DNA from: Planctomycetota bacterium
GTDB taxonomy: Bacteria > Planctomycetota > JAPUJT01
NCBI GenBank assembly: GCA_027296055.1
Contig: JAPUJT010000124.1
Location: forward strand, 2,992 to 66,991
DNA: 64,000 nucleotides
Direction: 5' to 3'
Under the pieces are notes generated by a model, which worked only from the letters and a program-made list of their open reading frames with translations, was not told where the DNA came from and made no database searches. A program made the translations under genes and the position numbers. Below are positions 8,169-46,334 of this stretch, piece after piece (position 1 is the stretch's first letter; every line of letters starts with the position of its first letter).

Positions 8169-10526
8169 TCACAGCCCGGGAACTCGTAGGACTCGCGAAT
8201 TTCCAGGGTCTGCCAGGAAAAGCCCATCTGGCGTGGCGGCGGCTCCTGCGGGGTCCAGAGTCCCCAGATCGAGGGAGGAGCTGGAAACCCCACCGGAATT
8301 GGGAAACGAATCGTCGAAGTCGAGCTGCCCGAACACCTCATCCGCCGGAATCGACATGCCGCCTGGGGGGGGGACAGCGTCCCAGCGCAGGACACGATGG
8401 TTCAGCGAGTCGGTGATGAACAGCGACTGGCCGTCGTAAGCGACCCCGATGGGGGTGTCGAGGCCCGTGGCTCCGCTCCCGGCCAGCCCCGGCAGGAGGA
8501 AGTCCGGCTGACCCAGCACCGTTACGGCCGGCTCGTTGTCCGTCTGGGGTAGCGGCTCCCAGATCATGACGCGGTGATTGTCCCTGTCGGTCACGATCAG
8601 GGCGGTCCCTGCCGCACAGATGTCCGTGGGACTACTCAGAGACCGGTCATCGCTACCTCCACCGTTCTGGCCTCCGCTCACGAAGTCAGGCTGGCCCAGG
8701 ACGAGGTCGGCCGATTGATTGGTGGAGAACGGCGACGTGAAACGGAGGACGCGGTGATTGTCCCTGTCCGCTACCCAGAGGAAAGAGCCGTCGAGGATGA
8801 TCCCCGCCGGTTCGCTCAGCCGATTCTGGGCCGTCCCCACCTGGTTCGTTGTCAGGAAGGGCTGACCCACCGCAGCGGTGGCGGCCATCGCGTTGCCGAA
8901 CGGCGAGTCGAACACGAGGATCCGATGATTCAACGAGTCCGCCACGAGCAACGAGGCATCGCCGGCGGTGAAGGCGACATCGACCGGCCGGGCCATCCCG
9001 TCCGGATTCGTCGACGGAAGCAGGCTCATGAAGTCCGGCTGACCCAGAACGATGTCCGCAGGCTGGCCGTTACGGCTCGGAAGCGGGTCCCAGATCAGGA
9101 CGCGACGGTTGCCGCTGTCCGCGATGGCCAGCCGGGTAGGGGAGGCGGCGATCCCCGAGGGGAGGTGAAGCACATCGGCGGCCGTCAGCCGGTGGTTGGG
9201 GAAGCCAGAGACGAAATCGGGCTGTCCGAAGACTACGTCGGCCGGGGCGTTGTCGCTTGCAGGAATCGACTGATGGATCTTCACGCGGCGACTTCGCTCG
9301 TCGTAGATCAGGAGGCGATTCCCGTCGGCGAGGATCGACTGGGGTCCCCGGAGCGTGGCGGCAGACCGTCCTCCATTGTCCGGGATGCCGGAAGTGCCAT
9401 CCGGCTGGCCGAGGACGACGTCGGCGCAGGCGTAGTCGGCCGGGACGCTCGTGTTCCAGATCATGATCCGGTGGTTGAGCTCATCGGCGACGTAGAGGTG
9501 ACCCGAGTCCCCCGTGATCCCGAACGGCAGGTTGAACGTCCTCCGGCTCCTTCCGAAGGAGACCATCTCGGGAGAGCATAGCGGGACGCTTCCGTTGTCC
9601 AGGTTGGGGAGGCCTGATGTGAAATCGGGCTGACCCAGGACCCCATCCGCCTGCTGTCCATCGATCCATGTGGGGGGGATGTTCCAGATGAGGACCCGGT
9701 TATTGAATTTATCCGTGACAAAGAGAGTGCTGCCGTTCGAGTAGACCTGGCGCGGGCTCGCCAACGTGTCGTCGCCGGTCCCTCCCCCCTGATTTCGCTG
9801 GACCGAGGAGAAGTCGACCTGGCCCAGGACGTGATCGGCAGGGGGACCCTCCGTCGCGAAAGATAACGGCAGGTTCCAGATCAGGATCCGGTGGCTCCCC
9901 ACGTCACTGACGTAGAGGAAGCGGCTGTCTGCAAAGACATCGAGGGGGTTCTCCAGCGTGTCCGCTGCCGGCAGCCCTCCACGGTGAGGGAGGTCAGTGG
10001 AGAAGTCCGCCTGTCCGATCACGTGATCTGCGGGGACACGATTCGAGGCCGGCGGGCTGTCCCAGACGAGGACGCGGTTGTTCGCCGAGTCGCAGACGTA
10101 AAGCCTCTGGCCATCGCTGAAGCTCCCTCCCGGCCGATTCAGGCTGGCGGCCGATATTCCCCCGGCGTTCGGCTCCCGAAGGTTGAAATCGTCCTGGCCC
10201 AGGACCCGGTCGGCCGCCTCGAAATCCATCGACGGCAGACCATCCAGGATCAGCACCCGGTGGTTCGCCGCGTCGCTCACGTACAACGTGGTCCCGTCGA
10301 AGTGGAGTCCCGAGAGGCCGAGCGGATCGAGACCTCGGGAGTCGACGGCGCTCTCCGCAGAGGTTGTGTGGCCCAGGACGAGATCGGATTGCGGTCCGGG
10401 CGGAGGCGGGGGAGGTGGTGGTTTGGTCCGGCTAGATCCCTCGCAGGACGCGCTGCCCACCGCCGTCAGGACCGCGACCGCCAGGAATGACCGCCAGCCC
10501 GAACGGTTCCAGCTATGGCGTGACAT
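8169..10526 (-). CDS. NHL-repeat beta-propeller lipoprotein
   Basis: ATG at 10526, 11 nt upstream of the giant gene's TAG (14-nt overlap). Signal peptide plus Cys (LTAVGSASC), then a poly-Pro linker KPPPPPPPPGP. About 13 repeats of AD.VLGQ.DF.S...N.GG.....L..P..V..DG..L.V.D..NHRVL.W. Confidence 0.85.
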   Translation of the reverse strand: MSRHSWNRSGWRSFLAVAVLTAVGSASCEGSSRTKPPPPPPPPGPQSDLVLGHTTSAESAVDSRGLDPLGLSGLHFDGTTLYVSDAANHRVLILDGLPSMDFEAADRVLGQDDFNLREPNAGGISAASLNRPGGSFSDGQRLYVCDSANNRVLVWDSPPASNRVPADHVIGQADFSTDLPHRGGLPAADTLENPLDVFADSRFLYVSDVGSHRILIWNLPLSFATEGPPADHVLGQVDFSSVQRNQGGGTGDDTLASPRQVYSNGSTLFVTDKFNNRVLIWNIPPTWIDGQQADGVLGQPDFTSGLPNLDNGSVPLCSPEMVSFGRSRRTFNLPFGITGDSGHLYVADELNHRIMIWNTSVPADYACADVVLGQPDGTSGIPDNGGRSAATLRGPQSILADGNRLLIYDERSRRVKIHQSIPASDNAPADVVFGQPDFVSGFPNHRLTAADVLHLPSGIAASPTRLAIADSGNRRVLIWDPLPSRNGQPADIVLGQPDFMSLLPSTNPDGMARPVDVAFTAGDASLLVADSLNHRILVFDSPFGNAMAATAAVGQPFLTTNQVGTAQNRLSEPAGIILDGSFLWVADRDNHRVLRFTSPFSTNQSADLVLGQPDFVSGGQNGGGSDDRSLSSPTDICAAGTALIVTDRDNHRVMIWEPLPQTDNEPAVTVLGQPDFLLPGLAGSGATGLDTPIGVAYDGQSLFITDSLNHRVLRWDAVPPPGGMSIPADEVFGQLDFDDSFPNSGGVSSSSLDLGTLDPAGAAATPDGLFLADPGNSRVLRVPGL

Positions 10527-13500
10527 CGTATCTCAGGACCCGGTTGTTCCTCTGATCGTTCACCCAGAGGAGATCGGCCGCGCCGGGGACGAGGGAAAGG
10601 CTGCAGTTCTCCGAGAGGATCCCCTTCCCTATGAAGAGGGATACCTCGCTGACCCCGCCGTTGTTGGGCAGGCTATCGTCGAAGCTGGGCTGGCCGATCA
10701 GACGATCCGCCGCCTCTCCCGAGGCTACAGGGAACTGGTCCCAGATCATGATCCGGTTGTTGTCCCCGTCGGTCACCATGACCACGGTCTCGATCCCGGC
10801 CGTGTCCGATTCGACGCCGAGCGGCCGGCTCATCCCGGTGACGCTGGTTGCGGCGACTCCTGGGATCGTCGTGTCGGCCTGGCCGAGGACGAGGGAGACG
10901 GCCGGATCCATGTCGACCAACGGATCCGGCAGCGGATCCCAGATCATGACGCGGTGGTTGTCCCGATCGACCACGAGCAACTGAGTTCCGTTCGAGACGA
11001 CGTCGTTCGGATTGCGAAGACCGCGCGTGCCGTCGTTGTTTCCATGGTCGGGGCTCCCGGAGACGAGGTTGGGCTGACCCACAGCGATGTCCGCCGAGCC
11101 GTTGGTCACGATATTCGCGTCCGAGAATCGGAGCACCCTGTGGTTTCCGCGATCCACCACCCACAAGAATCCACCTCCCGAGGATTGCCACGAGAGGCCT
11201 GCGGGGTCGTCCATCCGGTTCGCAGCGAGCCCCGCGCCCACGCCCACCGAGTCCGGCTGGCCGAGCCAGATCGACTGGTCCATATCCGTGTTGAATGGCC
11301 CGTTGTAGACGGTGACGCGGTTGTTGGCCGAGTCCGCCACGAAGAGCCGGTCGCCTCCTGTGTCGTAGGCCACGTCCGTGGGGTTTCTGTGTCCCTTGGT
11401 CCCCCCCGCGGGCAAGATGCTCGAGAAGTCGGACTGACCCAGGACGAGATCCGCGTTCTTGTTGTTGACGTTTGGGATCGTGCTCCACACGAGGACGCGA
11501 TTGTTCCGGCTGTCGGCCACGAAGAGCTGCGAACCGTCCGAGTCGACGCCGCCCGGTCGCCGGAACGACCGGGGGTCGATCCGGGCGTGGTTCGGGAAGT
11601 TGGAGGTGAAGTTCCTCTGGCCGTAGACGATCTGCGCCGGGTCATTATCGCCTGTCGGGATCGTATCGTGAATTTTCACACGGCTGTTGTCGTGATCGAA
11701 GACGAGGAGCTCGGTTCCTGTGGAGGCCACCCCCAGAGGCAGCCTGAGGCTCGTACTGGAGAGGCCTCCGCTGTTGGCGATCCCTTGCCTTCCATTGATC
11801 TGGCCCAGGACCGCGTCGGCGCACCCATCGTCGAAGGTGATGTCCGTGCTGGGTGGAGGGTTCTGGTTCAAGATAACTACCCGGTGGTTGCCTCCATCCG
11901 CGATATAGGTGTGCCCCGTATCGAGGAAGACGTCCTGCGGAAAGTTCAAGGATCGACGGCTCCGGCCGGCGCTGTTTCCGTCACCGGCGCACGCCGTGGG
12001 GTTAAAGTCGCCGTTCGGGATGGCCGGCGACGTGAACGCCGCCTTACCCAGGAGCCCGTCCGCCGCCTGACCGTCCGCCCAGGCAGGTGGCGTGCCCCCG
12101 GGAATCGTCCACCAGAGGACCCTGTGGTTCGTCGTGTCGGCGACGATGAGCGTCGTCCCATCGGTGAATATCCCGCGCGGGCTGTTCAAGGTGTTGCCGT
12201 TCGTCCCCCCTCCCCGGTTGGCCATCTCGCTAGTGAAGTTCGCCTGGCCGAGGACATGATCGGCCATCTGGCCATCCGTCCACGCGGGAGGAGTTCCGGC
12301 CGGGATGTTCCAGATCATGATCCTGTGATTGTTCGCGTCACTGACGAAGATCTGATCCGCATCCCCGTAGATCCCCAGGGGCGTGTCCAGCGTGTCCTGA
12401 TCGGGACCGCCCCCCATGTCGGGCATGTTGTCCATGAAGTTCAGCTGTCCGAGGACGTGATCGGCAGGGACGTTGTTCGACGTCGGGATCGCGTCCCAGA
12501 TCAGGACCCGGTGATTGTCCGTATCGCACACGTAGAGGCCGGTTCCATCGGAGTAGACCCCCATCGGGTTGTTCAGGCTGCTGGCCGAGGGGCCCTGGAA
12601 GTTCTCCACGTTGACGCTGAAGTCCTTCTGCCCGACGACGACGTCGGCCGTCTGGAAGTCCGACCCCGGCACACTGTCGAAGATCAGGACACGATGATTG
12701 GCCGGATCGCTGACGAAGAGCTGCGACCCCCCGATGTCAGCGTCCCCGCGGGACGTCCCCTTCTCCAGCTCTTCCGGATCGATCCCCCGACCGTCGACCC
12801 CTCCCTGGAGGAAGCTGTCGTGACCCAGGACCAGCTCGGCGGAGATCGAGTTATCCACGGAGAAAGGGTTGGACGCAGCGAGAGCACCTACCGCCCCGTG
12901 CTGGTCGGTGGGCGTGATCTGAATCTCGACGTCTGTACTGATCGTGCTGCTGAGATCCGCGAACGTGTCCCAGATGAAGAGGTGACCCACCTCCTCACCC
13001 AGGGGCCCGGATGTCAGCATGACCTTCCCTTCCGCCGGCGGGGCGGTGGACTCGGTCGCCGTGACGGGAGTGCCCCCCCCGATGCTGTACTCGATGACGA
13101 GATCGACCAGGTGGCTGAAGGAGTCGCGGATCCGGTACGAGACATAGACGTCGCCCGACTGTACGCCGCTGATGTTGAAGATCTGGACGACCGGGGCCTG
13201 GTTGTTGTCCACATCGAACATGTTGGAGGTGTCGGGGATTCCCAGCTTCGTGTCCATCGGCGTGATTGTTATCGTGACGTTGGGGACGAAGTCGCGGCCG
13301 AGATCGGTCACCGACTCCCAGACGAAGACATGCGCCGTGCCTCCGGGAGAAGAGGTGAGCCCGGTGACGCCGTCGCTGCCGGCGCCCTCCGTCGCGGGCA
13401 CGGGACCTCCCCCCACGTCGTACTCCACGACGATGTCCTGCAGGTCGCTCTCCGCGTCGGTCAGGGTGTAGTTCACCGTGATGTCGCCGCTGGAGGGGCT

Positions 13501-16500
13501 CGTGATCATGCTGATCGTAACGCTCGGTGGGCTAGTGTTGTCCACCTCGAAGACGGTCGTCTGGTTGGGCGGCCCGGCACCCAGGGTCGGGTTGGCGTTG
13601 TCGCTCGGCGAGATGCGGACGACCACCGTCGTCTCGAGGATGCCCGCCAGGTCCACGTCCGAATCCCAGACAAAGACGTGGGTCGTCCCGCCGGGAGACG
13701 TCGTGAGCCCCAGGATTCCGTCGCTTCCGGCCCCCCCGGTGGCCGTCGCGAAGACGAAGCCGCCGTCTGTCGAGTACTCGACCCGGAGATTGGTGTTATC
13801 CGACTCGGCGTCCGCCAGGACGTAATCGATGGTGATGAGCCCCGTCTCGGCGCCTGGCCCGAGAGGATCGATCGACGTGACCTCGGGCTCGTCGTTGTTG
13901 TTGACCAGGAAATCCGGTGTCGTGAAGGCGACGCCGGTGTTCTGGCCGTCATCCGGGGTGATTCGGAAAGTGACGGTGTCCGAATCGTTGGCCCCCAGGT
14001 CGAATCTCGAATCCCAGACGAAGAGGTGGCCGATCCCGTCGGGGGAGGATGTCAGTAACGTCAACCCCTCGCTGGGCGGATTGGGGCCTTCCGTGGCGAC
14101 GGAGAAGATCCCCCCGGTCGAGTACTCGACGGTGATGCTGATCGTGTCGCTGTTCCCGTCGATCAGGACGTACTCGATGTCCACGTCGTCAGCCCGCTCG
14201 TCGGCGGAGGCCGGAGATCCGATGAAGACGATCGGGAGGTCGTTGTTGTCCACGTCGAAGGTGACCGTTTGCACGCCGCCCGTATCCGTATCGGACGGGG
14301 TAAGCTCGAAGATCACATCCACCAGGTTCACGATCCCCACGTCTGCGATCGAGTTCCAGGCGAAGCTGTGGGATATGCCTGTCGGGCTCGATGTCAGGTC
14401 CAGCCTTCCTCCGACCTGTATCGTGGCGACCGTGAAAGTCCCTCCCGCGTCGGTCGAGAACCGTGCGGCCACATTGACCAGGTCGCTGGTGCTATCAGTC
14501 AGATTGAAGCCGATCCGGATCAGCCCGCTCCGGGAGGACCCTGCGGGAGGCGCGGTGATCGTCACCGACGGGGCGTCGTTGCCCCGGATGAACTTGTTCG
14601 AGGTGTCCTCCGTGCCGAGTCCATCGTTGTCCGTCGGAGTGATCCGGATGAGGATGTCCACGACAGCCGCCGCGGCGCCGAGATCCGTGGCCGAGTCCCA
14701 GACGAACGTGTGGGCGACTCCTCCGGGTCCTGCGGGGAGGCCCATTTTCCCGTCTCCGCCGACCCCCTCCGTTGCCGTGACAAACATGACCCCGTTGTCC
14801 GTAGACCAATCGACGGCGATGTCGGAGTCGTCCGCGTCCCCGTCGAACAGCCGGTAGTTGATCGTCACGTCATCGGTGAAGGACCGCGGGACAGGAGCGA
14901 TGTCCGCCAGGGGCAGGAGGCTCGGGTTGTTGAGCCTGAAATTCGTCGTCGCAACGGCCAGCCCGACATCGGAATCGGCGGGAGTGATCTCTATCCTCGT
15001 CATGTTGAACGGACCGGCATAGGCAACATCCGTGATGCTGTCCCAGACGAAGAGGTGCGTGATCCCGCCCGTGCTCGTCGTGAGGGCCGTCACCCCCTGG
15101 CTGGGAGGACCTCCCTCCGTCGCAGCGGCCCAGTTCGACCCGCCGTCCGTCGAGTAGCGGACAGTGATGTCGGCCGGGTCGGAGTTCGAGTCGCTGAGCG
15201 AGTAGGAGATCACGATATCGCCGGCCTGCTGCCCGAGGGGGGTGTCGATCGTGGCCACCGGGGCATCGTTGTTGTCGACGTCGAACAGGTTGGAGGTATC
15301 GGCCGTGCCGATCTTCGTATCACTGGGAGTGATCGTGATGGTGACCATCTGGACGAACGCAGGCCCGAGATCGGCGAAGGAATCCCACACGAACGTATGT
15401 GCTATTCCCGCGGGAGAGGCGGTGAGGCCGGTGGTCCCGTCGCTGCCGGGTCCCTCCGTGGCCGGGAGGGGGCCGCTCCCCGTGTCGAACTCGACCAAGA
15501 TGTTCTGCAGTTCGCTCTCCGTGTCGCGGAGGGAGTAGGTGATGGTTATGTTGCCGACTCCGGGGCTCGCGATCGGATCGATCGTGATCCCCGGAGGGAC
15601 GGTGTTGTCCACCGTGAAGAAGTCAGTTTGGGCACGCGTGCCGAGGCCGAGGGTGAGGTTCGGGTTGTCCCTCGGGACGATCCGGAAGAGGACCGCGGTC
15701 TCCTCCAGCAGTCGGCCCACGTCGTCCCCGGATAGCATGCTTGTGTCCCAGACGAAGACGTGCGGGTCCCCGGCCGGACTGGCGCTGAGCCCCGTCACCC
15801 CTTCGCTCGGCGGCCCCGTTTGCTCCGTTGCGCTGAAGAAGTTGGAGCCATCGGTCGAATAGAAGACGTCGATATCGACGGCGTCGCTCTCCGCGTCGAA
15901 GAGGACGTAATTGATCGTGATGTCCAGGTCCTGGGATCCGGATGGCGTGGAGATCGTGGCCGTCGGCTCCACATTGTTGTTCACCAGGAAGTCGGCGGTG
16001 GTAAAGACCACGCCGGGGTTCTTCCCGTCGTCCGGTGTGATGCGCAGTGTCGCCGTGTCGGAATCCAGCGAGGCGAGGTTGGCCGCCGAGTCCCAGAGAA
16101 AAATGTGCTCGACACCGTCGGGCGAGGACGTGAGCCCAGTGATACCCTCGCTCGGCGGGATGGGGTTCTCGGTTGCGGTAAGGTATGTCGCGCCGTCAGT
16201 GGAGTACTCCACCATGATGTCGATCGGGTCGCTGTTCCCATCGATCAGGATGTGGGAGACCTGGACGTCACCAGCCTCGAGGTCGGAGATCGCCGGAGCT
16301 CCTATGAAGGAGATCGGAAGGTCGTTGTTGTCGATGTCGATCACGACGTCGCTGTCCAGGCCCCCCGTCGTGTCGCTCGGAGTCAGTCGGAACGTGACCC
16401 CCGTCAGGTTCACGATGCCGAGATCCGCGATCGAGTTCCAGGCCAGGTCATGCGAAAGGCCAGGGGTCGGAGCCGATGTAATGTCGGCCGTCTCACCCAC

Positions 16501-19500
16501 GGAGATGGAGGCAGGGAGGAAGATGACGCCATCGGTGGAGTATTCCGCCACCAGATCCACCAGATCGCTCGTCGAGTCCACCAGGTCGTAGGTGAACTCG
16601 ATGAGGCCGCTCTGGATCGACAAGGGGGCGGGGTCGGTGATCGTGAGCACCGGGGCGTCGTTTCCTCGGATGAATACGTTCGAGACCTCCGTGTTTCCCG
16701 TCCCGTCCGGGTCCGTGGGGGTGATCCGGATCTCGAGATCCGGCTCCGCCACTAGGCTTGTAAGAAGATCGGCGAATGTGTCCCAGACGAACGTGTGCGG
16801 AGCGCCCGTCGGATCGGAGGAGAGGCCCGTCACGCCGTCGCTTCCCGCGCCCGGCCCCGCGTCGGTGGCCAGCATCCATGGATTCGGAGATCCCCCCTGC
16901 CGCCACTCGACGAGGATGTCGACCGCATCCGAGTCACCGTCGAAGAGCCGGTATGTCATCGTCACGTCATCGACGAAAGATCGAGCGATCGGGTCGAGGG
17001 CGACGCCGGGGATGAACGTCTGGTTGCTCACCGAGAAGACCCCCGAGTCCGAAGGGATGCCCATAGAAGTGTCGAGGGGCGTGATCCGGAAGACGACGCT
17101 CGGGAAGAACCCGAAGCCGACATCGGCGACCGAATCCCAGACGAAGATATGGTTGATTCCGCCGGTCGAGGTGATGTGCGGTCCCAGGCCCTCGCTGGGC
17201 AGCCCGGGCCGTTCCGTGGCCATGAAGAAGTTGAGCCCTCCGTCCGTCGAATAGTCCGCCATGATGGTCGCCATGTCGCTGTGGGTGTCCGTGAGGGCGT
17301 ACGAGACGACGATGTCCCCGCTGGGCGATCCGGGCGGCGTCGTCACGAACGCGGAGGGGGGGTCGTTGTTGTCGACCTCGAAGGCCAACGTCACGTCGGG
17401 AGGGCTCGTCTTGGTGTCCATCGTCGTGATCCGGATCGTGACGCCGGTCGTGCGGGCGGGGCCGAGATCGGTCGAGGCCTCCCAGCGGAAGACATGGGTC
17501 GTCCCACCGGGGGACGACGTCAGGTTGGTCACTCCGTCGCTCACCGGCGCGGTGCAAGTGGTGCACTCCTTGGCGGGGAAGTAGTTCGAGCCATCGGTGG
17601 AGTACTCGACGACGATCGTCTGGAGGGCGCTCTCCACATCGGTGAGCGTGTAGTCGATCACGGGATCTCCCGTCTGCGGCGAGGGGGGATCCACCACGAC
17701 GACGGACGGCACCGTCGTGTTGTCGACGGTGAAGATGTCGGTCTGGGCGAGCGTCCCCAGTCCCAGGGTCGGATTGGTGTTGTCCTGGGGGACGACCCGC
17801 AGGATGACGTCGTTCTCGGCCAGGGAGATGGCAACGCCATCGAGTACCGTGTCCCAGACGAATACGTGGGGGTTTCCGGCGGGGGACGCTGTGAGCCCGG
17901 TTATCCCCTCACTCGGGGGCCCAGGTAACTCGGTGGCGGGGGCGAAAGTCTGACCGCCGTCAGTGGAGAACAGGATGCTGACGTCGACCAGGTCACTCTC
18001 CGTATCGGAGAGTGTGTAGTTGACCGTCACCAGGTCGTCCTGGGGGCTCGTCGGCGTTGAGATCGCCGAGGAGGGCTCCAGGTTGTTGTTCACCAGGAAG
18101 ATCTCCGACGTGAAAGGAGTCCCCACGTTGACCGGATCGGAAGGAGTGATCCGGATCCGTACCTGGTCGGAGTCTTGAGATGTGAAGTTCGTCGCCGAAT
18201 CCCAGACGAAGATGTGAGAGATACCGTCCGGAGAGGAGGTCAGTCCCGTGATCCCCTCGCTGGGAGGCGCCGGGTTCTCCGTGGCCGACAAGAAGATGAT
18301 CCCATCCACGGTGTACTCGACCGTGATGTCAATCGCATCGCTGTCGACATCGATCAGGATGTGGGAGACCTGGATGTCGCCTGATTTGAGGTCATCGACC
18401 GCGGGAGACCCGATGAACGAGATCGGGACGTTGTTGTTGTTGATGTCGATGGTGACGAGAGCAGGCGCCCCCATCTCACCGATGCTGTCTATGGGCGTGA
18501 TCTCGAACTGCACTCCGGTGAGGTTGGCATCCCCGAGGTCGATCACCGAGTTCCAGGCGAAGTCGTGCGACTGCCCGCCGGGAGGGGCGAACAGGCTCGT
18601 CAGGCCTCCGACGGCGATCGTGGCGGGCAAGAAGGTGACGCCCGCGTCGGTGGAATACCTGGGCGTGATGTCCACCGGGTCCGTCGTGGAGTCGGAGAGA
18701 GTGAAGACGAACTCGATGAGGCCGCTCTGCGTCGTCAAAGGGAGTGGGGAAGTGATCGTGGCCATGGGGGCGTCGTTGCCGACGATGAACACGTTGGAGA
18801 CGCCAGAGAAGCCGGTGCCGTCCCCATCGGTCGGCGTGATCCGGATCTCGAGATTGGACTGCGCCCCTGCAAGCAGGTCGGCCGCCGAATCCCAGACGAA
18901 CGTATGTGAGGTCCCCGTCTGGGTCGTCGTGAGACCCGAGATCCCCTCGCTCGCCCCCCCCGTGCGCTCCGTGGCGGGGGTCGGGCTGAAAGTGGCGCCG
19001 CCGTCGATGGAGTACTCGACGAGAATGTCCGAAAGGTCCAGGTCGCCATCGGAGAGGAAGTACGTGATCGTGACGTCGCTGGACAGGGAGCGGGCAATCG
19101 GATCGATGCGTGCGACGGGGAGCAGGTTCTGGTTGTTCACCGGGAAGTCGGCCGTGTCGGCCGGTGCACCGACGCTCGAGTCCATCGGCGTGACGCGGAA
19201 GCGGACGTTTGGCTCGAAGCCGAGCCCGAGATCCGCTATCGCAGAGGAGTTCCAGACGAAGACATGGTTGACGCCGGCCCCACTCGTGATCAGACCCGTC
19301 GTCCCCTCGCTGGGCAGCCCCGGCTGCTCGGTGGCAAGCTGGAAGCTTACCCCCGCGTCGGTCGAGAACTCAGGCGTGATCGACGAGACGTCGTCGTTGT
19401 TGTCCGAAAGGGTGTAGGAGATCACGACGTCGCCCGAGGGAATGCCCGAAGGGGTTTGAATCAGGGCGATCGGAGGGACGTTGTTCTGGACCTCGAAGGC

Positions 19501-22104
19501 GCCCGAGGTGTCGGCCGTCCCCAGCTTGGTGTCGGAGGGCGTGATCTGGATCAGGACGCCCGTGACGAGGGCCGGACCGATGTCGAAGTCTGATTCCCAG
19601 GTGAAGACATGAGCCACGCCTGCGGGGTCCGAAGTGAGCCCGGTCACGCCGTCGCTCGTCCCGCAGGTCGTACATTCCTTGGCGAGGCTCCAGTTCGCCC
19701 CCACGTCCGTGGAGAACTCGACGAGTATGTCGATCGGGGCCATCTCATCGTCGAAGAGCGTGTAGTTGATGTCGATGTTGCTCGACTGGTTTGGCACGGG
19801 GGCTATCGTCACGCTGGGGGGGCTCGTGTTGTCGACGGAGAAGAGGATCGTCTGGGAGACGGAACCCAGGCCGAGGAGGGGGTTGGCATTGTCGCTCGGC
19901 GTGATCCGGAAGATCACGTCATCCTCCTTGAGATCCAGGGCGACGACGTCGATGATCGAATCCCATACGAAGACATGCGGAGTCGGCGGAACTCCTGCGG
20001 AAAGTCCGATCGTGCCCTCACTTCCCTGACCAGGACCCGCGTCGGTGGCCGGGCCGAAGGTCGCCCCTCCGTCGGTGGAGAAATCGGCGACGATCTCCAC
20101 CAGGTCTGTGAGCTCCAGATCCTGCAGGGAATAGTTGATGGCCACGAATCCGAGGTCTTGAGGGCTCGGCGGTGTCCCGACGAAGGCTTCCGGCTCCTGG
20201 TTGTTGTTCACGAAGAACGGGCCGTCCATCGCCCGGGCCGTGCCCGGGCCCGCGGCATCGATCGGGGTCACCAGGAGCTTCACCGACGAGTAGTCCACAC
20301 CCGGAAGATCGACGATCGTGTCCCACACAAAATCGTGGCGCGTTCCCCCCGGGGAGGACGACAGAACGGTCAGGGCCTCGTGAGGAGGGATAGGATTGGC
20401 CGTGGCGGCGGCAAAGGTGGCCCCGTTATCCGTGGAGAATTCCATCGTGGCGTCGAGGTCCAGGCTGGAGTTTTCGAAGAGCAGGTAGGAGACAATGACG
20501 TTCCCTTCCACGACCTGGGCGGGGCTCGGCGAGGCGATGAAGCCCACCGGCCGATCGATGTTGACCACGCGGAAATCGATCGTCTCCGAGAAGCTGCCGC
20601 ACTCCTGAATCCCGATCTCATCGTCGCAGGCCCTCATGCGGATGCGGACCGTGGGGAAGTCAGCGTTGGGGAGGTCCAGGATCGAGTTCCAGGAGAGCTT
20701 CTGCATCAGTGGACTGGGGGGTGCATTCACCGTCACTCCCACCTCGATCGTGGCGGGGAAAAACACCAGGCCACTGTCAGTCGAGTACTCTACATTCAGG
20801 TCGGAGGGATCGTTGGTCGTGTCCGTCAGGGTGAAGGTGATGGTGATGATCCCCTCGTCGTGGAGTCCCGTGATGGGCTCCAGGACGACCGAGGGCGCAT
20901 CGTTGCCGACGACGAAATCGCCTGTCTCGAACCAGGCCCCCATGCCTCCCGCGTCGGATGGCCTCACGCGCACCCGGACGATGGCCGCCACCACCCCGAT
21001 GTCGAGGAGGCTCTGCCAGAATACGGGGTGCGGCACGCCGGTGATGGTGGTGGGGAGGAGGTCGATCACGACGCTGGTCGGAGTGAGGCTCATCGTCGCC
21101 CAGCTCCCACCCATGTCGAGGGAATACTCGAACTCGACGGCGATCAGGTCATTCTGCGAATCGACGAGAAAGAAGTTTATCTGGATCAGATCGTCTTGAC
21201 GCTGGACCGCCTCGATGAAGGCGGAGGGGCTGTCGTTGTTCGTGACCGCGAAGATATTGGTGTCGACCGCCGTCCCGATGTCCGGACCCTGTCCCGTCGG
21301 GTCGTCGCTCGGCGTGAGCTGAAGGACCACCATGTCGAAATTGTTCAGGCCGAGATCGTTCAGGGCATCCCAGGCCAGGGTGTGTGTGATCCCGGCAGGA
21401 TCCGTGGGAAGGTTCGCGACCCCTCCGCCCGTCACCGTCGCCTGAGAGGGGAACGTGAGCCCTCCGTCGAGGCTGTAGAGGACGGCGATGTTCCCCGCGT
21501 CGCTCGTCGAGTCGAGGAGGTCGTAGGTCACGGCGACGAGGTTCGAGGAGTCGGGGACCATGCGGACGTTCTGAAGCATTGGCGCGTCGTTGCCGACGAA
21601 GACGTTCGTCTCGATGACCGGCATCCCGGTCATGCCCTTGGCATCAGTGGGAGTGATCTGGATCCGGACGAGCTGATTGGCCGAGGTCCCTATGTCTGTC
21701 GTCGAGTCCCATACGAAAGTATGGGTGATTCCCGTCGGGTCCGCGGTGAGCATTGCCGTGCCTTCGCTCCCCGCCCCGGGGCCTGCGTCGGTGGCAGGGC
21801 CGAATGGCGTGATGTCATCCGGGGAGAAATCGACGACGATGTCGACGAGATCGCTATTGGCATCCTGGAGCGTATAGGTGATCAGGACGTTTCCGTCCTG
21901 TCGCAGGATCGGGTCCAGGACCAGCAGGGGCGGCACCTCCGGGGAGGGGTCGCCGCCGCTGCTCCCGCCGGAGGAGCTGGCGACGGCAATGGCAACCGCC
22001 GCGATGTACCCGCAGCCGGACCCTGCGAGCAGAAGCACCGTAGCGGCAAGGAGACAGATCTTTTGCGGGCCCATTCGAGAGCCAGGATGTTTCCCGAGGC
22101 GCAT
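10513..22104 (-). CDS. Giant exported repeat protein 1 (~3,863 aa): ~26 Asp-box-containing modules plus a C-terminal NHL propeller region
   Basis: Uninterrupted 11.6-kb ORF. The track start at 22110 is TTG. The first ATG is at 22104, with GGGGA upstream. N-terminus MRLGKHPGSRMGPQKICLLAATVLLLAGSGCGYIAAVAIAVASSSGGSSGG. Tandem ~115-aa modules follow, then ~780 aa of the same NHL repeat type as the downstream 785-aa protein. Confidence 0.9.
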   Translation of the reverse strand: MRLGKHPGSRMGPQKICLLAATVLLLAGSGCGYIAAVAIAVASSSGGSSGGDPSPEVPPLLVLDPILRQDGNVLITYTLQDANSDLVDIVVDFSPDDITPFGPATDAGPGAGSEGTAMLTADPTGITHTFVWDSTTDIGTSANQLVRIQITPTDAKGMTGMPVIETNVFVGNDAPMLQNVRMVPDSSNLVAVTYDLLDSTSDAGNIAVLYSLDGGLTFPSQATVTGGGVANLPTDPAGITHTLAWDALNDLGLNNFDMVVLQLTPSDDPTGQGPDIGTAVDTNIFAVTNNDSPSAFIEAVQRQDDLIQINFFLVDSQNDLIAVEFEYSLDMGGSWATMSLTPTSVVIDLLPTTITGVPHPVFWQSLLDIGVVAAIVRVRVRPSDAGGMGAWFETGDFVVGNDAPSVVLEPITGLHDEGIITITFTLTDTTNDPSDLNVEYSTDSGLVFFPATIEVGVTVNAPPSPLMQKLSWNSILDLPNADFPTVRIRMRACDDEIGIQECGSFSETIDFRVVNIDRPVGFIASPSPAQVVEGNVIVSYLLFENSSLDLDATMEFSTDNGATFAAATANPIPPHEALTVLSSSPGGTRHDFVWDTIVDLPGVDYSSVKLLVTPIDAAGPGTARAMDGPFFVNNNQEPEAFVGTPPSPQDLGFVAINYSLQDLELTDLVEIVADFSTDGGATFGPATDAGPGQGSEGTIGLSAGVPPTPHVFVWDSIIDVVALDLKEDDVIFRITPSDNANPLLGLGSVSQTILFSVDNTSPPSVTIAPVPNQSSNIDINYTLFDDEMAPIDILVEFSTDVGANWSLAKECTTCGTSDGVTGLTSDPAGVAHVFTWESDFDIGPALVTGVLIQITPSDTKLGTADTSGAFEVQNNVPPIALIQTPSGIPSGDVVISYTLSDNNDDVSSITPEFSTDAGVSFQLATEQPGLPSEGTTGLITSGAGVNHVFVWNSSAIADLGLGFEPNVRFRVTPMDSSVGAPADTADFPVNNQNLLPVARIDPIARSLSSDVTITYFLSDGDLDLSDILVEYSIDGGATFSPTPATERTGGASEGISGLTTTQTGTSHTFVWDSAADLLAGAQSNLEIRITPTDGDGTGFSGVSNVFIVGNDAPMATITSPLPLTTQSGLIEFVFTLSDSTTDPVDITPRYSTDAGVTFLPATIAVGGLTSLFAPPGGQSHDFAWNSVIDLGDANLTGVQFEITPIDSIGEMGAPALVTIDINNNNVPISFIGSPAVDDLKSGDIQVSHILIDVDSDAIDITVEYTVDGIIFLSATENPAPPSEGITGLTSSPDGISHIFVWDSATNFTSQDSDQVRIRITPSDPVNVGTPFTSEIFLVNNNLEPSSAISTPTSPQDDLVTVNYTLSDTESDLVDVSILFSTDGGQTFAPATELPGPPSEGITGLTASPAGNPHVFVWDTVLDGVAISLAENDVILRVVPQDNTNPTLGLGTLAQTDIFTVDNTTVPSVVVVDPPSPQTGDPVIDYTLTDVESALQTIVVEYSTDGSNYFPAKECTTCTAPVSDGVTNLTSSPGGTTHVFRWEASTDLGPARTTGVTIRITTMDTKTSPPDVTLAFEVDNNDPPSAFVTTPPGSPSGDIVVSYALTDTHSDMATIMADYSTDGGLNFFMATERPGLPSEGLGPHITSTGGINHIFVWDSVADVGFGFFPSVVFRITPLDTSMGIPSDSGVFSVSNQTFIPGVALDPIARSFVDDVTMTYRLFDGDSDAVDILVEWRQGGSPNPWMLATDAGPGAGSDGVTGLSSDPTGAPHTFVWDTFADLLTSLVAEPDLEIRITPTDPDGTGNTEVSNVFIRGNDAPVLTITDPAPLSIQSGLIEFTYDLVDSTSDLVDLVAEYSTDGVIFLPASISVGETADITSAPTPGLSHDLAWNSIADLGIVNLTGVTFRLTPSDTTGGLDSDVVIDIDNNDLPISFIGAPAISDLEAGDVQVSHILIDGNSDPIDIMVEYSTDGATYLTATENPIPPSEGITGLTSSPDGVEHIFLWDSAANLASLDSDTATLRITPDDGKNPGVVFTTADFLVNNNVEPTATISTPSGSQDLDITINYVLFDAESDAVDIDVFYSTDGSNFFSATEQTGPPSEGVTGLSASPAGDPHVFVWDTSMLSGDDVGRLLEETAVLFRIVPRDNPNLTLGLGTRAQTDFFTVDNTVPPGITIDPIASPGVGNITITYSLRDTESELQNILVEFDTGSGPLPATEGPGSDGTTGLTASPAGIAHTFVWDSFADLGPAFVQMVTITITPSDTKIGTADTSNLFDVDNNDAPVATIDTPLGQQAGDIVISYSLSDSNSDPADITVRYSTDGGSNWAAATEGGPPSQGVTALTTSTGGITHLFVWDSITDVAYAGPFNMTRIEITPADSDVGLAVATTNFRLNNPSLLPLADIAPVPRSFTDDVTINYRLFDGDADDSDIAVDWSTDNGVMFVTATEGVGGDGKMGLPAGPGGVAHTFVWDSATDLGAAAAVVDILIRITPTDNDGLGTEDTSNKFIRGNDAPSVTITAPPAGSSRSGLIRIGFNLTDSTSDLVNVAARFSTDAGGTFTVATIQVGGRLDLTSSPTGISHSFAWNSIADVGIVNLVDVIFELTPSDTDTGGVQTVTFDVDNNDLPIVFIGSPASADERADDVDIEYVLIDGNSDTISITVEYSTGGIFSVATEGPNPPSEGLTLLTSSPDGIGHLFVWDSRFDLGANDSDTVTFRITPDDGQNTGVAFTTPDFLVNNNDEPEVTSIDPLGPGAETGLITIDYVLADAESDNTNLRVEYSTDGGFVFATATGGAGSDGILGLTTSPGGTTHVFVWDSDVDLAGILETTVVVRISPSDNANPTLGAGPPNQTTVFEVDNTSPPSVTISMITSPSSGDITVNYTLTDAESDLQDIVVEYDVGGGPVPATEGAGSDGVTGLTSSPGGTAHVFVWESVTDLGRDFVPNVTITITPMDTKLGIPDTSNMFDVDNNQAPVVQIFNISGVQSGDVYVSYRIRDSFSHLVDLVIEYSIGGGTPVTATESTAPPAEGKVMLTSGPLGEEVGHLFIWDTFADLSSTISTDVEIQITPTDQHGAVGALAASNPFSVDNSISAELVLGHDSFLQGGVDGRGIDPEELEKGTSRGDADIGGSQLFVSDPANHRVLIFDSVPGSDFQTADVVVGQKDFSVNVENFQGPSASSLNNPMGVYSDGTGLYVCDTDNHRVLIWDAIPTSNNVPADHVLGQLNFMDNMPDMGGGPDQDTLDTPLGIYGDADQIFVSDANNHRIMIWNIPAGTPPAWTDGQMADHVLGQANFTSEMANRGGGTNGNTLNSPRGIFTDGTTLIVADTTNHRVLWWTIPGGTPPAWADGQAADGLLGKAAFTSPAIPNGDFNPTACAGDGNSAGRSRRSLNFPQDVFLDTGHTYIADGGNHRVVILNQNPPPSTDITFDDGCADAVLGQINGRQGIANSGGLSSTSLRLPLGVASTGTELLVFDHDNSRVKIHDTIPTGDNDPAQIVYGQRNFTSNFPNHARIDPRSFRRPGGVDSDGSQLFVADSRNNRVLVWSTIPNVNNKNADLVLGQSDFSSILPAGGTKGHRNPTDVAYDTGGDRLFVADSANNRVTVYNGPFNTDMDQSIWLGQPDSVGVGAGLAANRMDDPAGLSWQSSGGGFLWVVDRGNHRVLRFSDANIVTNGSADIAVGQPNLVSGSPDHGNNDGTRGLRNPNDVVSNGTQLLVVDRDNHRVMIWDPLPDPLVDMDPAVSLVLGQADTTIPGVAATSVTGMSRPLGVESDTAGIETVVMVTDGDNNRIMIWDQFPVASGEAADRLIGQPSFDDSLPNNGGVSEVSLFIGKGILSENCSLSLVPGAADLLWVNDQRNNRVLRYDVTP
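12850..21948 (-). repeat. Coding tandem array of ~26 modules (~350 nt each) with a six-module (~2.1 kb) super-repeat
   Basis: Recurrent motif (I/V).Y.L.D..SD..D(I/V).VE(Y/F)STDGG.T(F/W)..AT...SEG.TGLTSSP.G..H.FVWDS..D...(I/V)R(I/V)TP.D...F.V.NND.P. Landmark codons for 'ISFIG/IVFIG' recur at 14222, 16304 and 18412. Confidence 0.85.
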
Positions 22105-22207
22105 CACCAATCCCCTAGAAGCGCCGTTACGGAAGGCACGAAAGGCCCTCTGTGGCGGGCGGCAGCGAAATTATCGAAGAAAGGAAAACCTAGCCCCCAG
22201 GCGAGTC

Positions 22208-22309: not shown

Positions 22310-25300
22310 TCAGAATCGCCGGATGCGGTCGTTACCCGAATCCACGAAATAGACGACGCCCGTGGCGTCCACGTCGATACCGTTCGGCGAGACCATGAGC
22401 GCCGAGACGGCCGGTCCGCCGTCCCCGCCGAAGGCCGCCCCGCCGGTCCCCGCGATCGTCGTGATGATGTCCGGTGTCAACGAGACGTCGATGACTCGCA
22501 CCCTGTGATTGTCCAAGTCGGAGACGTAAATGTTGTCAGACGTGTCCACCGCCAGGCCGAAGGGACGGTTGAGCATCGCGGCCAGGGCGTCACCCCCGTC
22601 GCCGGAGTACCCTGCCGTGCCCGTGCCGGCGAACGTGTCGATGTCCAGGAGAAGGTCGACGACCCGGATCACGTGGTTGCTCGAGTCGGCGATGTAGATG
22701 AAGCCGCCGCTGTCCACAACGACGTCAGTGGGGAACGTCATCGTCGCCATGTCCGCCGGGCCACCGTCTCCCGTGTACCCCGAGGTCGCAGGGGTCCCTG
22801 CCCAGGTATCGATGATGCCGCTCGTATCGACGATGCGGACGATATGGTTTTCGGTGTCCGCGATGTAGGCGTTCCCCGAGGCGTCGAAGGTGATCCCGTT
22901 GGGCCGATTGAGCTCTGCGGCGGTGGCCAGCCCGAGGTCTCCACTGAACCCTCCTGCCGTCGTGCAGCCCACGCCAATACCTGCGAATGTCGAGATCGAG
23001 TCGGCCACCAGATCGACCACGCGGATTCGATTGTGCCCCCAATCGGCAACGTAGATGAGGCCGCCGGCCTCATCGAGGAATAGCTGCCTCGGCAGCGTGA
23101 TGGTGAAGTCTGTGGCGGGAGAGCCATCTCCGCTCCAGCTGCATCCCCCGTTTCCCGCCACCGTCGTGATCAGGCCGGTCTGGGCATCCACAAGACGGAT
23201 TCTCCCATCCGTCGTCACGTAGACGTTTCCGGCGGAGTCCACCGCCACGCCGTTGATGTTGCTGTGCACCTGCGAGATCGCGGGGACATCGTTCTGGAAG
23301 AGAGTGCCTCCTGTCCCCGCAACGGTGTTGATGATCAGGCCGGAATCGACCGTCCGGATCCTCCCGTTGGTAGCGATGTGGATATTTCCGAGGGGATCGG
23401 TCGCCACACCCCAGTTGCTGCCGGTGCCGGCCAAGAGGGCGGGCCCGCCGTCGCCCGAGAAGGTGGCGGAGCCGGTGCCGGCGAAGTTGTTTATGATCCC
23501 CCCCGTGTCCACGATCCGGGTCCGGTTGGCGCCCCGGTTGACGATGTAGAGGTTGTCCATCGTGTCGATGGCGAGTCCCCATGGGTTGGCCAGGCCCGCG
23601 GCCGTGGCGAGCCCTCCATCCCCCATGGCGTTGTCCATCCCGTTGCCGGCGTAGGTGTCGATATTCCCGCTTGCACGGTCCACCCAGCGGATGCGGAAGT
23701 TCTTGCTGTCGCTGATGAAGACATCGTCGAGGGAATCGATCGCCAGATACATCGGCTCGTCCAGCTGGGCCGATACGGCCAGCCCGAGGTCCCCCATGAA
23801 CCCCGGCGCCCCTGTGCCCGCGAAGGCCCGGATGAATCCTGTCGAATCCACACGTCGCACGCGGTGGTAAAGCGCTCCCTGCCACTCGGAGATGAATATG
23901 TCTCCGTTCGAGTCGACCGCCACGTCCCGGGGACTACGGAGACGAGCGTCCGTTGCCAGGATGTCGTCGTTCGGGTCCGTGCCTCCGCCCGCGACCGTGG
24001 TGATGATCTCCGTGATGGCGTCCACGCGGCGGATCTTGTTGTTGTTCAGGTCCGCGATGTAGAGGTTTCGATTGGCGTCGACGGCGATGCCCTCCGGCTG
24101 GCGGAGCGATGCGAGGTACGCGGGACCACCGTCGCCCATGTCCCGCTGAGCCCCGTTCCCGGCGATGGTCCGGATCTGTCCCGTGAAGGCATCGACGTGG
24201 CGGACCCGTGCCCTGATAAACTCGGTGAAATATATGTTTCCAAACGAATCGGCCGCCACGTCACGGGCGAAGATGAGGGCGTCCAGGGCGTCGCCTTCGT
24301 CACCGTTGCCCGCGCCCGAGATCGTGGCGATCACCCGGTTGTCGAGTCGGAAGCTTCCGGTGGCCCCGGGGGTGCCGACGCTGCCCGTGGGTTGCTCCGT
24401 CGGCTGCACCAGAAGGACGACGTCGGTGTAGTTGGCCCTGCCCAGATCGAAGAAGGCACTCCATACGAAGATATGGCCTTCCCCGGCGGCGGAGGTCGAT
24501 AGCCCCAGGAGTCCTTCGCTGGGAAGGCCCTCCGCTTCCGTCGCGGCCATGAACGGCCCGGCGGAGCCGTTGGTGGAGTAGCTCACCGTGACGTCGGCCA
24601 GGTCTAGGTTGGAGTCGATCAGGCGATAGCTCAAGGTCACGCGGTCGAACAGGATTCCCGGCGCCACGTTCGCGGAGGCGGTCACCGGCGTGTTGTTCAC
24701 GACGAACGGGCCATAGGATGTCGGTGCCGGATCCTCCTTGGAGTCGGTGGCGATGATCGCGATGTGGACCGTGGCGAAGTAGCCCGACAGATCCACCTCC
24801 GATATCCAGCCTATCTGGTGGACGGTTCCCACTCCGGGGGAGGTCGTGAGGTCTTCCGTGCCGTCGCCTATCGACGCGTCGACCGTAGCATCCGACCATC
24901 CCGAGATCGGCCCCACGCCGGTCGTGGAGTACTTCAGCTGGATGCTAGAAAGATTGCTCTCGAGATCGATGATCCTGTAGTCGATGGTGAGGTTCCTGTG
25001 GACGTCATCCGGGGGAGCCATCTTCCCCGTGGGCGAGGTGACGTTGTCGATGGTGGCCGTGGGGGCCAGTGTGTTGTCCACCACGAAGACACCCGTCCGA
25101 CCCGGAGTTCCAACCCCGAGAATCGCCAGGACGTTGTCCTCCGGCGTCAAGCGTACGTCGACGCTCGTCTCCCGTTTTCCGGGTAGATCCACGTCGGTTT
25201 CCCAGACGAAGTCGTGGGATGTTCCGCCTGGAGAAGTGGACAGCGCCGTCGTCCCATGGCTACCGAAAAGGATGCCCGCATCTTTAGCTAAAATGAAAGA

Positions 25301-41488: not shown

Positions 41489-42352
41489 TCAGAGAAAGAG
41501 ATCCTTCTGCCTCGGACGCGGAGGTGGGGAGCTATCCAGCCCCAAGAGCCTCTGCATCAGCAGGGCGTTCTGTGCCGCCTGCGCCCCGTGGCAGTTGTTG
41601 AAGAAGACGTAAACGGCGGTCGTCCGCTGCGCCAGATCCTTCAGCTTGTCGATCCACTCCATCAGCTCCTCTCGCGAGTAGTCGTAATCGTACCTCCCTT
41701 CGCCCGAATACCAGCGCTTCCCATCCCGACTATGCAACCGGACGTAGCCGATGGAAGAGGTGGCGGCGGCGATAGGGGGAATGAGCCCCTCGATTCGAGG
41801 CTCGTCCACGCAGCAGAACGCGATTCCGCTTTCGCGCAGAAACTCGAAAACGCCGTCATCGATCCATGAGGCATGCCGGAATTCAGCGATGAGCGGGAGT
41901 TCCTTCATGGACTCGGCGATCGAGCGCAGGGTGTTCAAGCTCTCGGGAGAGCGGCGAAACGCCTGCGGAAACTGCAGGAGCACTCCTCCGAGTCGCCCCG
42001 CGGCCGAGAGCGGCTCGAGGCACGTCCGGAACGGACCGACGTGCTTATCTACTTCCCCGCCATGGGTGATCCCCTTGTAGGCCTTGACGAAGAAGACGAA
42101 CGATTCGGGGGTCTGCCGCGTCATGCGGGACAGAGTGGCGGGTCGCGGGATTCCGTAGTAGGTGAAGTTGAGCTCTACCGTCCCGAAGCAATCCGCGTAG
42201 ACGGACAGCATCTGCTCCCGGCGCGTCCCCTCCGGGTAGAAGGGACCTACCCAGCCGGGATAGTTGTAGCCGCTCGTTCCGATGTGGATCTTCTCCTGCC
42301 ACCTCCCTCGGGCTGGAGCCTTCGATGAATCTTCCGTCACTTCAGAGCTCAA
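41489..42352 (-). CDS. DUF72 (YecE-like) family protein
   Basis: IHIGTSGYNYPGWVGPFYPEG...YADCFGTVELNFTYYGIP...EFRHASW...YVRLH match DUF72 hallmarks. The start is non-ATG (TTG at 42352 or GTG at 42340) and overlaps the upstream WD40 gene's stop. Confidence 0.8.
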   Translation of the reverse strand: MSSEVTEDSSKAPARGRWQEKIHIGTSGYNYPGWVGPFYPEGTRREQMLSVYADCFGTVELNFTYYGIPRPATLSRMTRQTPESFVFFVKAYKGITHGGEVDKHVGPFRTCLEPLSAAGRLGGVLLQFPQAFRRSPESLNTLRSIAESMKELPLIAEFRHASWIDDGVFEFLRESGIAFCCVDEPRIEGLIPPIAAATSSIGYVRLHSRDGKRWYSGEGRYDYDYSREELMEWIDKLKDLAQRTTAVYVFFNNCHGAQAAQNALLMQRLLGLDSSPPPRPRQKDLFL

Positions 42353-44159: not shown

Positions 44160-44222
44160 AGCCGCCAGCTCCTACCCGGCAAGCGGGAGATGGTAGGAAA
44201 ACTCGAATGACAAAACAACGGG

Positions 44223-46256: not shown

Positions 46257-46334
46257 GACACCTCTACCGTGAGTCTGGTTCCTCCGGGGATGATATCGAC
46301 GTCGGATGGCCCGATCTATCTGCACTCGACTGGA

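Follow-up and report, generated by a model that had tools for sequence, protein, structure and literature searches.

What is a unit of about 115 residues that recurs in tandem along a single planctomycete protein, each copy apparently combining one Asp-box with an N-N-D-x-P boundary reminiscent of cadherin repeats, and does it belong to any known family? The question is raised by a window of 64,000 nucleotides, the whole stretch of DNA analysed here, from a Planctomycetota bacterium (GenBank assembly GCA_027296055.1, contig JAPUJT010000124.1, positions 2,992 to 66,991), in which a sequence-only reading had described the repeat and left it without a family. The repeat lies in a giant gene on the minus strand (10513..22104) whose product of 3863 aa consists of an N-terminal anchor, 26 modules and an NHL head. 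In the open reading frame (ORF) listing, the gene extends to 22110 (10513..22110, minus), with a TTG start at that position; given that the database copy of the protein (P0001, 2840 bits in the family hidden Markov model (HMM) search) has 3863 aa, the ATG at 22104 is the probable start codon. Our analysis indicates that the module defines a new domain family of a familiar type, that of the tandem immunoglobulin-like (Ig-like) extenders in giant surface proteins of bacteria. As to the role of the protein, we consider it moderately probable that it is a lipid-anchored Ig-like stalk, probably stiffened by Ca2+, which carries an NHL binding head.

A profile seeded from one module and iterated against the giant protein recovered 26 non-overlapping modules (aa 60-3071). 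Their domain scores run from 71.5 to 112.1 bits and their i-Evalues from 7e-24 to 1.5e-36, and they follow one another every 111-125 aa (mean 116.5). Including linkers, the array covers aa 60-3092, or nt 12835-21933 on the minus strand, which bears out the earlier count of about 26 copies at 12850-21948. The profile consensus, GxVxIxYxLxDxxSDxxDIxVEYSTDxGxxFxxATExxGxxSxGxTGLxxSPxGxxHxFVWDSxxDLG...VxxRITPxD...FxVxN, is likewise essentially the residue pattern first noted. W74, D96 and N113 are kept in all 26 modules, D24 and P1 in 25, and D79 in 24. The claim of one Asp-box per module stands as to the presence of the motif and needs qualification as to its form: 15 of the 26 modules have the strict S.D.G..[WFY] (19 of 44 once the 18 modules of a paralogue encoded upstream are counted), whereas in the remainder the box is one residue shorter or degenerate. 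The BNR/Asp-box model (PF02012) recognises the whole protein with 27.0 bits, exactly at its cutoff of 27, and family-wide the motif is conserved to 74% at S37, 66% at D39, 76% at G41 and 93% for an aromatic at position 44. The array is strongly acidic, with a net charge of -339 and a pI of 4.05. Some modules carry a CxxC pair (CTTC, CLAC, CTAC) inserted in the loop that follows the Asp-box, at 19663-19674 and 17554-17565 of the window (minus) and at aa 346-349 and 712-715 of the paralogue; these residues, nearly the sole cysteines of both arrays, may form disulfides or bind metal.

The modules are not equivalent to one another. Amino-acid identity between them is 50% at lag 6 and 44.5% at lag 12, compared with ~36% at most other lags, and the DNA matches itself at offsets of 2067-2112 nt, the 2067 nt offset holding at 65% identity over 4.9 kb. 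Thus, the array is a six-module super-repeat, one unit of which (modules 13-18, ~2.1 kb) occupies 15598..17709 on the minus strand, and the six module types and their order are common to the giant protein and its paralogue. Such higher-order periodicity, with every sixth module the closest relative within the array, recalls the Ig/FN3 super-repeats of titin; the analogy is one of organisation only, the array being bacterial, presumably extracellular, and built of an unrelated domain family. In self-BLAST, the DNA copies are only ~65% identical, and Tandem Repeats Finder reported nothing at the DNA level in the array. Together, these results rule out a recent expansion or an assembly artefact and, as far as divergence among the copies can tell, the array is ancient.

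Comparison with known families returned fragments of the module, centred on the Asp-box. With the whole protein as query, Pfam placed NHL on the head and only summed short matches on the array (Reelin_subrepeat-B, BNR and CHB_HEX_C), and NCBIfam yielded nothing meaningful. When the 44 modules were scanned singly against Pfam, no family matched, the best being Big_7 (PF17957; 3 of the 44 modules, at best 7.6e-4) and Reelin_subrepeat-B (4 modules), and even with a consensus emitted from 1358 modules the matches remained confined to the Asp-box stretch. Big_7 scored this consensus at 11.9-15.3 bits against a cutoff of 24.1. Reelin_subrepeat-B (PF21471) reached 42.5 bits against a sequence cutoff of 27, but only when summed over many modules; its best stretch covered positions 59-79 of 127, no single stretch was significant, and the consensus module matched positions 53-76 of 127 with 16.2 bits. 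The likeness to this subrepeat, in which a strand is followed by the Asp-box (VEYSxDGGxTW), is thus limited to ~52-80 of the 127 profile positions, and the reelin domain is a jelly-roll rather than a seven-stranded Ig-like sandwich (PMC2716378). CHB_HEX_C (PF03174) stayed at 22.4 bits against 23.6, over positions 35-53 of 76, and Mo-co_dimer (PF03404) matched only in relatives, over positions 48-68 of 138. Profile searches of PDB sequences retrieved Asp-box segments of reelin (the best match, 4.8e-4), sialidases and GH74 enzymes only, with no full-length match, and no account of the module turned up in the literature searched. On these grounds, the module is without a model in Pfam, NCBIfam or the PDB as searched, so that the sequence-only reading was right to leave it outside the named families. 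The profile DUF7077 (PF23274) matches two relatives, P0111 and P0019 (36.3 bits on P0111 against a cutoff of 27, positions 48-111 of 122), whereas neither the modules of the window nor the consensus of the family are matched; the DUF7077 family may be remotely related and likewise contain an Asp-box.

If not by sequence, the module can be placed by fold. The structure prediction and Foldseek search that the sequence-only reading had proposed were run on the module and on a pair, and returned an Ig-like sandwich without a known family over its full length. AlphaFold2 modelled the module from the 44 single modules, with module 24 (13528..13887, minus) as their representative, at a pLDDT of 94.1 and a pTM of 0.85, and the pair from an alignment of 42 adjacent module pairs at a pLDDT of 95.6 and a pTM of 0.83; in both, each module is folded entirely from beta strands, of which about seven are main ones, and the pTM of the pair is consistent with a defined orientation between neighbours. 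Against the PDB, Foldseek matched the modelled pair only to tandem Ig/FN3 proteins (E down to 1.3e-5, TM 0.3-0.4). The single module gave no match at E <= 1e-3, its best being Ig V-type domains, Der p 2, a carbohydrate-binding module (CBM) and the Ig-like dimerisation domain of sulfite dehydrogenase (E ~1e-2, 19-23% identity, TM 0.4). Independently of the models, mean-field covariation over 1022 adjacent module pairs from 154 proteins recovered antiparallel pairing of strands C-F (34-90, 35-91, 33-93), F-G (89-108, 84-110) and B-E (20-70, 15-73), as well as the Asp-box hairpin itself (37-41, 39-43), and indicated that the Asp-box aromatic packs against strand F (44-89, 44-91); in Ig-like Asp-box domains, this aromatic packs on the outer face of the sheet (PMC2716378). 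Models, fold matches and covariation all agree with the general Ig-like plan of a two-sheet Greek key of about seven strands, and give the module as a seven-stranded Ig-like beta-sandwich with the Asp-box as its C-C' hairpin.

The same results bear on the more usual setting of the Asp-box, the blades of a sialidase-like beta-propeller. The BNR score at its very cutoff and the presence of sialidases and GH74 enzymes among the closest PDB sequence matches would be in keeping with one or more such propellers, but Asp-box propellers (sialidase, GH74, Vps10) carry one box per four-stranded blade of 40-70 aa, whereas the period here is 116 aa, every propeller match is confined to the motif of ~20 residues, and both the confident AlphaFold2 sandwiches and the covarying pairs exclude blades. 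We therefore assign this reading a negligible probability. Nor is one box per ~115 aa the anomaly that it had first seemed: single Asp-boxes are found in Ig-like sandwiches, namely the C-terminal domain of chitobiase and the dimerisation domain of sulfite oxidase (PMC2716378). Like the module, these domains (CHB_HEX_C and Mo-co_dimer, respectively) are Ig-like sandwiches with one Asp-box hairpin, and the sulfite dehydrogenases SorT and SorA are among its best fold matches (19-23% identity). Unlike the module, they are single-copy enzyme domains that lack the tandem array, the N-N-D-x-P linker and the polar acid cluster, and their HMMs match the Asp-box stretch alone, below the cutoffs.

The acids of this cluster are conserved throughout the family. 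Across 1332 modules from other proteins, the most conserved positions comprise a core or framework set (P1, Y20, L22, W74 at 99%, R91, P94, G101 and F109), the Asp-box and a polar set (D24 at 91%, D28, D79 at 87%, D96 at 88%, D112 and N113 at 93%). In the predicted topology, the D24-x-E26-x-D28 motif forms the B-C loop and D96 lies in the F-G loop, both at the N-terminal pole, and D79 of the E-F loop and D112-N113-N114 of the linker are at the C-terminal pole; the acids would thus sit at the topological positions of the Ca2+ ligands of cadherins. D24, D28 and D96 are strongly coupled and are lost together (odds ratios of 15.5, 13.9 and 6.0). Between modules, the strongest off-diagonal coupling links D112 of module n to E26 of module n+1 (z = 7.2), followed by D84(n)-D98(n+1) and E11(n)-D98(n+1), and at all three a pair of acids is the most frequent pairing, a pattern that points to a bridging cation and away from a salt bridge. 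Furthermore, 16 of the 30 top off-diagonal inter-module couplings join the C-terminal pole of one module to the N-terminal pole of the next (~3 expected, p = 3e-9), compared with a single coupling in the reverse-direction control, so that the array has a head-to-tail polarity. The joint loss of D24, D28 and D96, the acid-acid couplings and the enrichment between poles give indirect support to a shared cation site, and Ca2+ binding at the junctions is a well-motivated inference from these patterns. In ~12% of junctions family-wide, additional acids, E11 and D84 of module n, covary with D98 of module n+1; in some junction types, this set could form a second cation site.

How far does the likeness to cadherins go? 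Cadherin repeats, like the bacterial Cadherin_5 and Big_9 (PF17963), share with the module its size, seven strands, tandem arrangement and an Asp/Asn-rich linker followed by Pro, as well as conserved acids in the B-C, E-F and F-G loops. A case for true, if diverged, membership of the cadherin or bacterial cadherin-like superfamily could be made from the module's ~115-aa seven-stranded tandem sandwich with a D-N-N-D-x-P linker, from the acidic loops at topologically equivalent sites and from weak matches to Cadherin_5 and Big_9. However, Cadherin_5 (PF17892) scored the consensus at 14.7-20.5 bits against a cutoff of 26.5, partially and out of register, with the C-terminal part of the model aligned to strands A-B of the module. 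No full-domain profile match rose above its cutoff: Pfam Cadherin (PF00028) matched none of the 44 modules at E <= 1, hhalign against four classical cadherin EC domains, entered as unverified sequences, gave a probability below 1%, and no cadherin was among the top 50 Foldseek matches. Cadherins, moreover, lack the Asp-box. We rejected homology on the module scans, the consensus scan and hhalign, and regard it as very improbable; the resemblance is, on the profile evidence, a functional analogy. The cadherin-like boundary of the sequence-only reading thus survives as an analogy, in the covarying acids of the B-C, E-F and F-G loops and of the linker and in the acid-acid pairs across junctions; no cadherin model reached its threshold.

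The two ends of the protein give the array its context. At the N-terminus (21955..22104, minus), a hydrophobic stretch is followed by a lipobox-like GSGC, a second hydrophobic stretch, GYIAAVAIAVA, and a Gly/Ser-rich linker, the whole reading LLAGSGC-GYIAAVAIAVA-SSSGGSSGG, with the lipobox-like cysteine preceded by G at position -3. Judged by inspection of the sequence against the bacterial criterion, [LVI][ASTVI][GAS]C at the end of the signal peptide, many relatives of the same layout have a canonical L[AS]GC. In P0006, P0027, P0041, P0048, P0050 and others, a signal peptide and lipobox Cys precede a short hydrophobic G/A-Y-I-A-A-x-x-A-x-A stretch and a Gly/Ser-rich linker, and this recurrent layout may be a family-specific anchoring or sorting signal. 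At the other end, the head of ~775 aa (10516..12834, minus) belongs to the NHL family (PF01436; Pfam E = 6.5e-27), with 12 blades marked by DxxN[HN]R[VI] motifs (12 of the DxxNHRV kind) ~60-70 aa apart, probably arranged as two six-bladed propellers.

From these elements, we propose that the lipobox-type anchor holds the protein at the cell envelope and that the 26 modules, joined head to tail through short (D/N)-N-(N/D)-x-x-P linkers, would form an extended and very acidic stalk. Its length would come to ~115 nm at ~4.5 nm (45 Å) per module, the rise seen in the extender of the adhesin MpAFP. The junctions would probably be stiffened by Ca2+, with the linker Asp/Asn of module n and the D24-x-E26-x-D28 loop and D96 of module n+1 as candidate ligands, and the 12-blade NHL propeller head would do the binding at the tip. 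The logic of such junctions would be that of cadherins and of the Ca2+-rigidified Ig-like extenders of RTX adhesins. In MpAFP/MpIBP, region II consists of tandem Ig-like extenders that are rigidified by Ca2+ and span ~45 Å per repeat (PMC4083281), and, like the array described here, MpAFP has tens of very acidic Ig-like repeats of ~100 aa with almost no Lys, acidic residues between the repeats and a distal ligand-binding region that is projected outwards (PMC4083281). The two proteins also differ. There is no sequence or close fold match between them; no HemolysinCabind, RTX or type I secretion domain is found among the Pfam matches of the giant protein, the C-terminus of which is NHL; instead it has a lipobox-type N-terminus and an NHL head. 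Its Ca2+ binding is inferred, and its modules have diverged into six types, by contrast with the near-identical repeats of MpAFP.

Several observations weigh against the Ca2+-stiffened, lipid-anchored stalk. The lipobox of the giant protein itself is non-canonical, with G at -3, and genes for secretion or anchoring partners are not evident near the giant gene. The poles were assigned from secondary structure and Ig topology. Modules at either end of an array retain the acids to almost the same degree as those inside it (D28 falls from 66% in internal modules to 51%, and D96 from 90 to 83%), so the acid site may be largely intradomain, or independent of the neighbouring module. The fixed order of module types within the super-repeat can inflate covariation between modules, the Fisher p-values take no account of the relatedness of the sequences, and the Asp-box columns are not among the junction couplings.

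The distribution of the family provides a further view of the array. A word-indexed homologue search with the 44-module alignment gave no match, a result that reflects limited sensitivity, given that an HMM run exhaustively over 1.84 billion representative proteins retrieved 4165 of them at E <= 1e-3, of which 2141 reached E <= 1e-10 and 630 reached E <= 1e-30, with up to 38 module copies in one protein. A genome scan with the consensus module gave one weak Micromonospora locus only, matched over residues 2-46. The relatives come mostly from metagenome-assembled genomes (MAGs) of Planctomycetota, and also from Candidatus Rifleibacterium, Candidatus Uhrbacteria and one archaeal MAG; where named, they are called hypothetical or NHL-, Kelch-, FG-GAP-, beta-helix- or FN3-containing proteins. 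Around the gene for P0006 are typical planctomycete genes (PSCyt2, PSD1, DUF1501) and no conserved partner gene. In the relatives, the same array is followed by NHL, Kelch, FG-GAP/TIG or beta-helix heads, and such interchangeability is what would be expected of a generic spacer.

It is against this background that a different role has to be weighed, in which the modules themselves bind, for example as carbohydrate-binding Ig-like or CBM-type units, which would make the array a multivalent lectin and not a passive stalk. A porphyran-binding CBM is indeed among the fold matches of the single module (8wae, E = 1.1e-2, TM 0.49-0.54), most Asp-box proteins are glycosidases (PMC2716378), and six module types that have long been kept distinct could reflect distinct specificities. 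However, the residues conserved family-wide belong to the core or are polar acids at either pole, and they outline neither a face nor a groove; Asp-boxes have been argued to be structural and not sugar-binding (PMC2716378); and in relatives the same array bears many different heads, as a generic spacer would. We consider a lectin unlikely and retain the stalk with its binding head. Whether the stalk generalises is a more tentative matter: conceivably, though with less than even confidence on our part, the family converged independently on cadherin-type Ca2+ junctions while bearing an Asp-box in its Ig sandwich, and serves giant lipid-anchored surface proteins of uncultured microbes as a universal, rigid stalk on which propeller or beta-helix heads can be exchanged, across at least 4165 representative clusters from Planctomycetota, candidate phyla radiation (CPR) bacteria, Rifleibacterium and an archaeal MAG.

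The giant gene has two relatives as immediate neighbours on the same strand. Upstream, the paralogue (22310..30907, minus; 2865 aa) carries its 18 modules at nt 24326-30742 and a teneurin-type NHL head, which matches TEN_NHL, NHL and SBBP and has only a weak relationship to that of the giant protein, at 23% identity over short segments. Downstream, an NHL-only protein of 785 aa (8169..10526, minus) shares 45.5% identity, along its full length, with the giant protein's head; it is free-standing, with a lipoprotein-like N-terminus, and the start of its gene and the stop of the giant gene overlap by 14 nt. The overlap suggests that a stalkless copy of the head is co-translated or co-expressed. 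This arrangement, two paralogous giants and a free head protein encoded side by side, with the super-repeat order conserved between the paralogues and a cadherin-like junction logic, is what could be expected if the stalks associated laterally or antiparallel, possibly between paralogues, to mediate homophilic or heterophilic contacts with other cells or the matrix, the NHL head being secondary. But there is no detectable homology to cadherins, nor anything like the strand-swap determinants of their N-terminal domain, and we hold such an adhesive array to be distinctly unlikely compared with a stalk that presents the NHL head.

Beyond this cluster, two large CARDB/DUF11 repeat proteins (544-2823 and 2880-5726, plus), with 8 and 5 CARDB domains, respectively, adjoin it on the opposite strand and are further candidate cell-surface proteins. 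Between their genes and the NHL gene lies a 690-aa ORF (5814-7886, minus) with no Pfam match at E <= 1e-3. An adenylosuccinate lyase encoded in the window has relatives at 73-74% identity, and those from named organisms, at about 50%, are spread over several phyla. Farther away, two adjacent WD40 propeller proteins of 605 and 700 aa (42342-46325 and 46335-49400, minus) are encoded directly downstream of a gene for a DnaE-type DNA polymerase III alpha subunit, on the same strand.

The results presented here change no major concept, given that tandem Ig-like extenders stiffened by Ca2+ are already well known in bacterial adhesins. If correct, however, the Ca2+ junction would offer a clear-cut example of convergence towards the solution used by cadherins, and tandem stalks would be a third structural context for the Asp-box. 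In Planctomycetota and other uncultured lineages, this module makes up the greater part of thousands of very large hypothetical proteins, which are currently annotated only by their head domains or by misleading partial matches, such as 'Reelin subrepeat B' and 'BNR'. A family definition that gives the boundaries, fold and signature residues of the module would annotate most of the length of these proteins and mark them as envelope-anchored and fibrillar.

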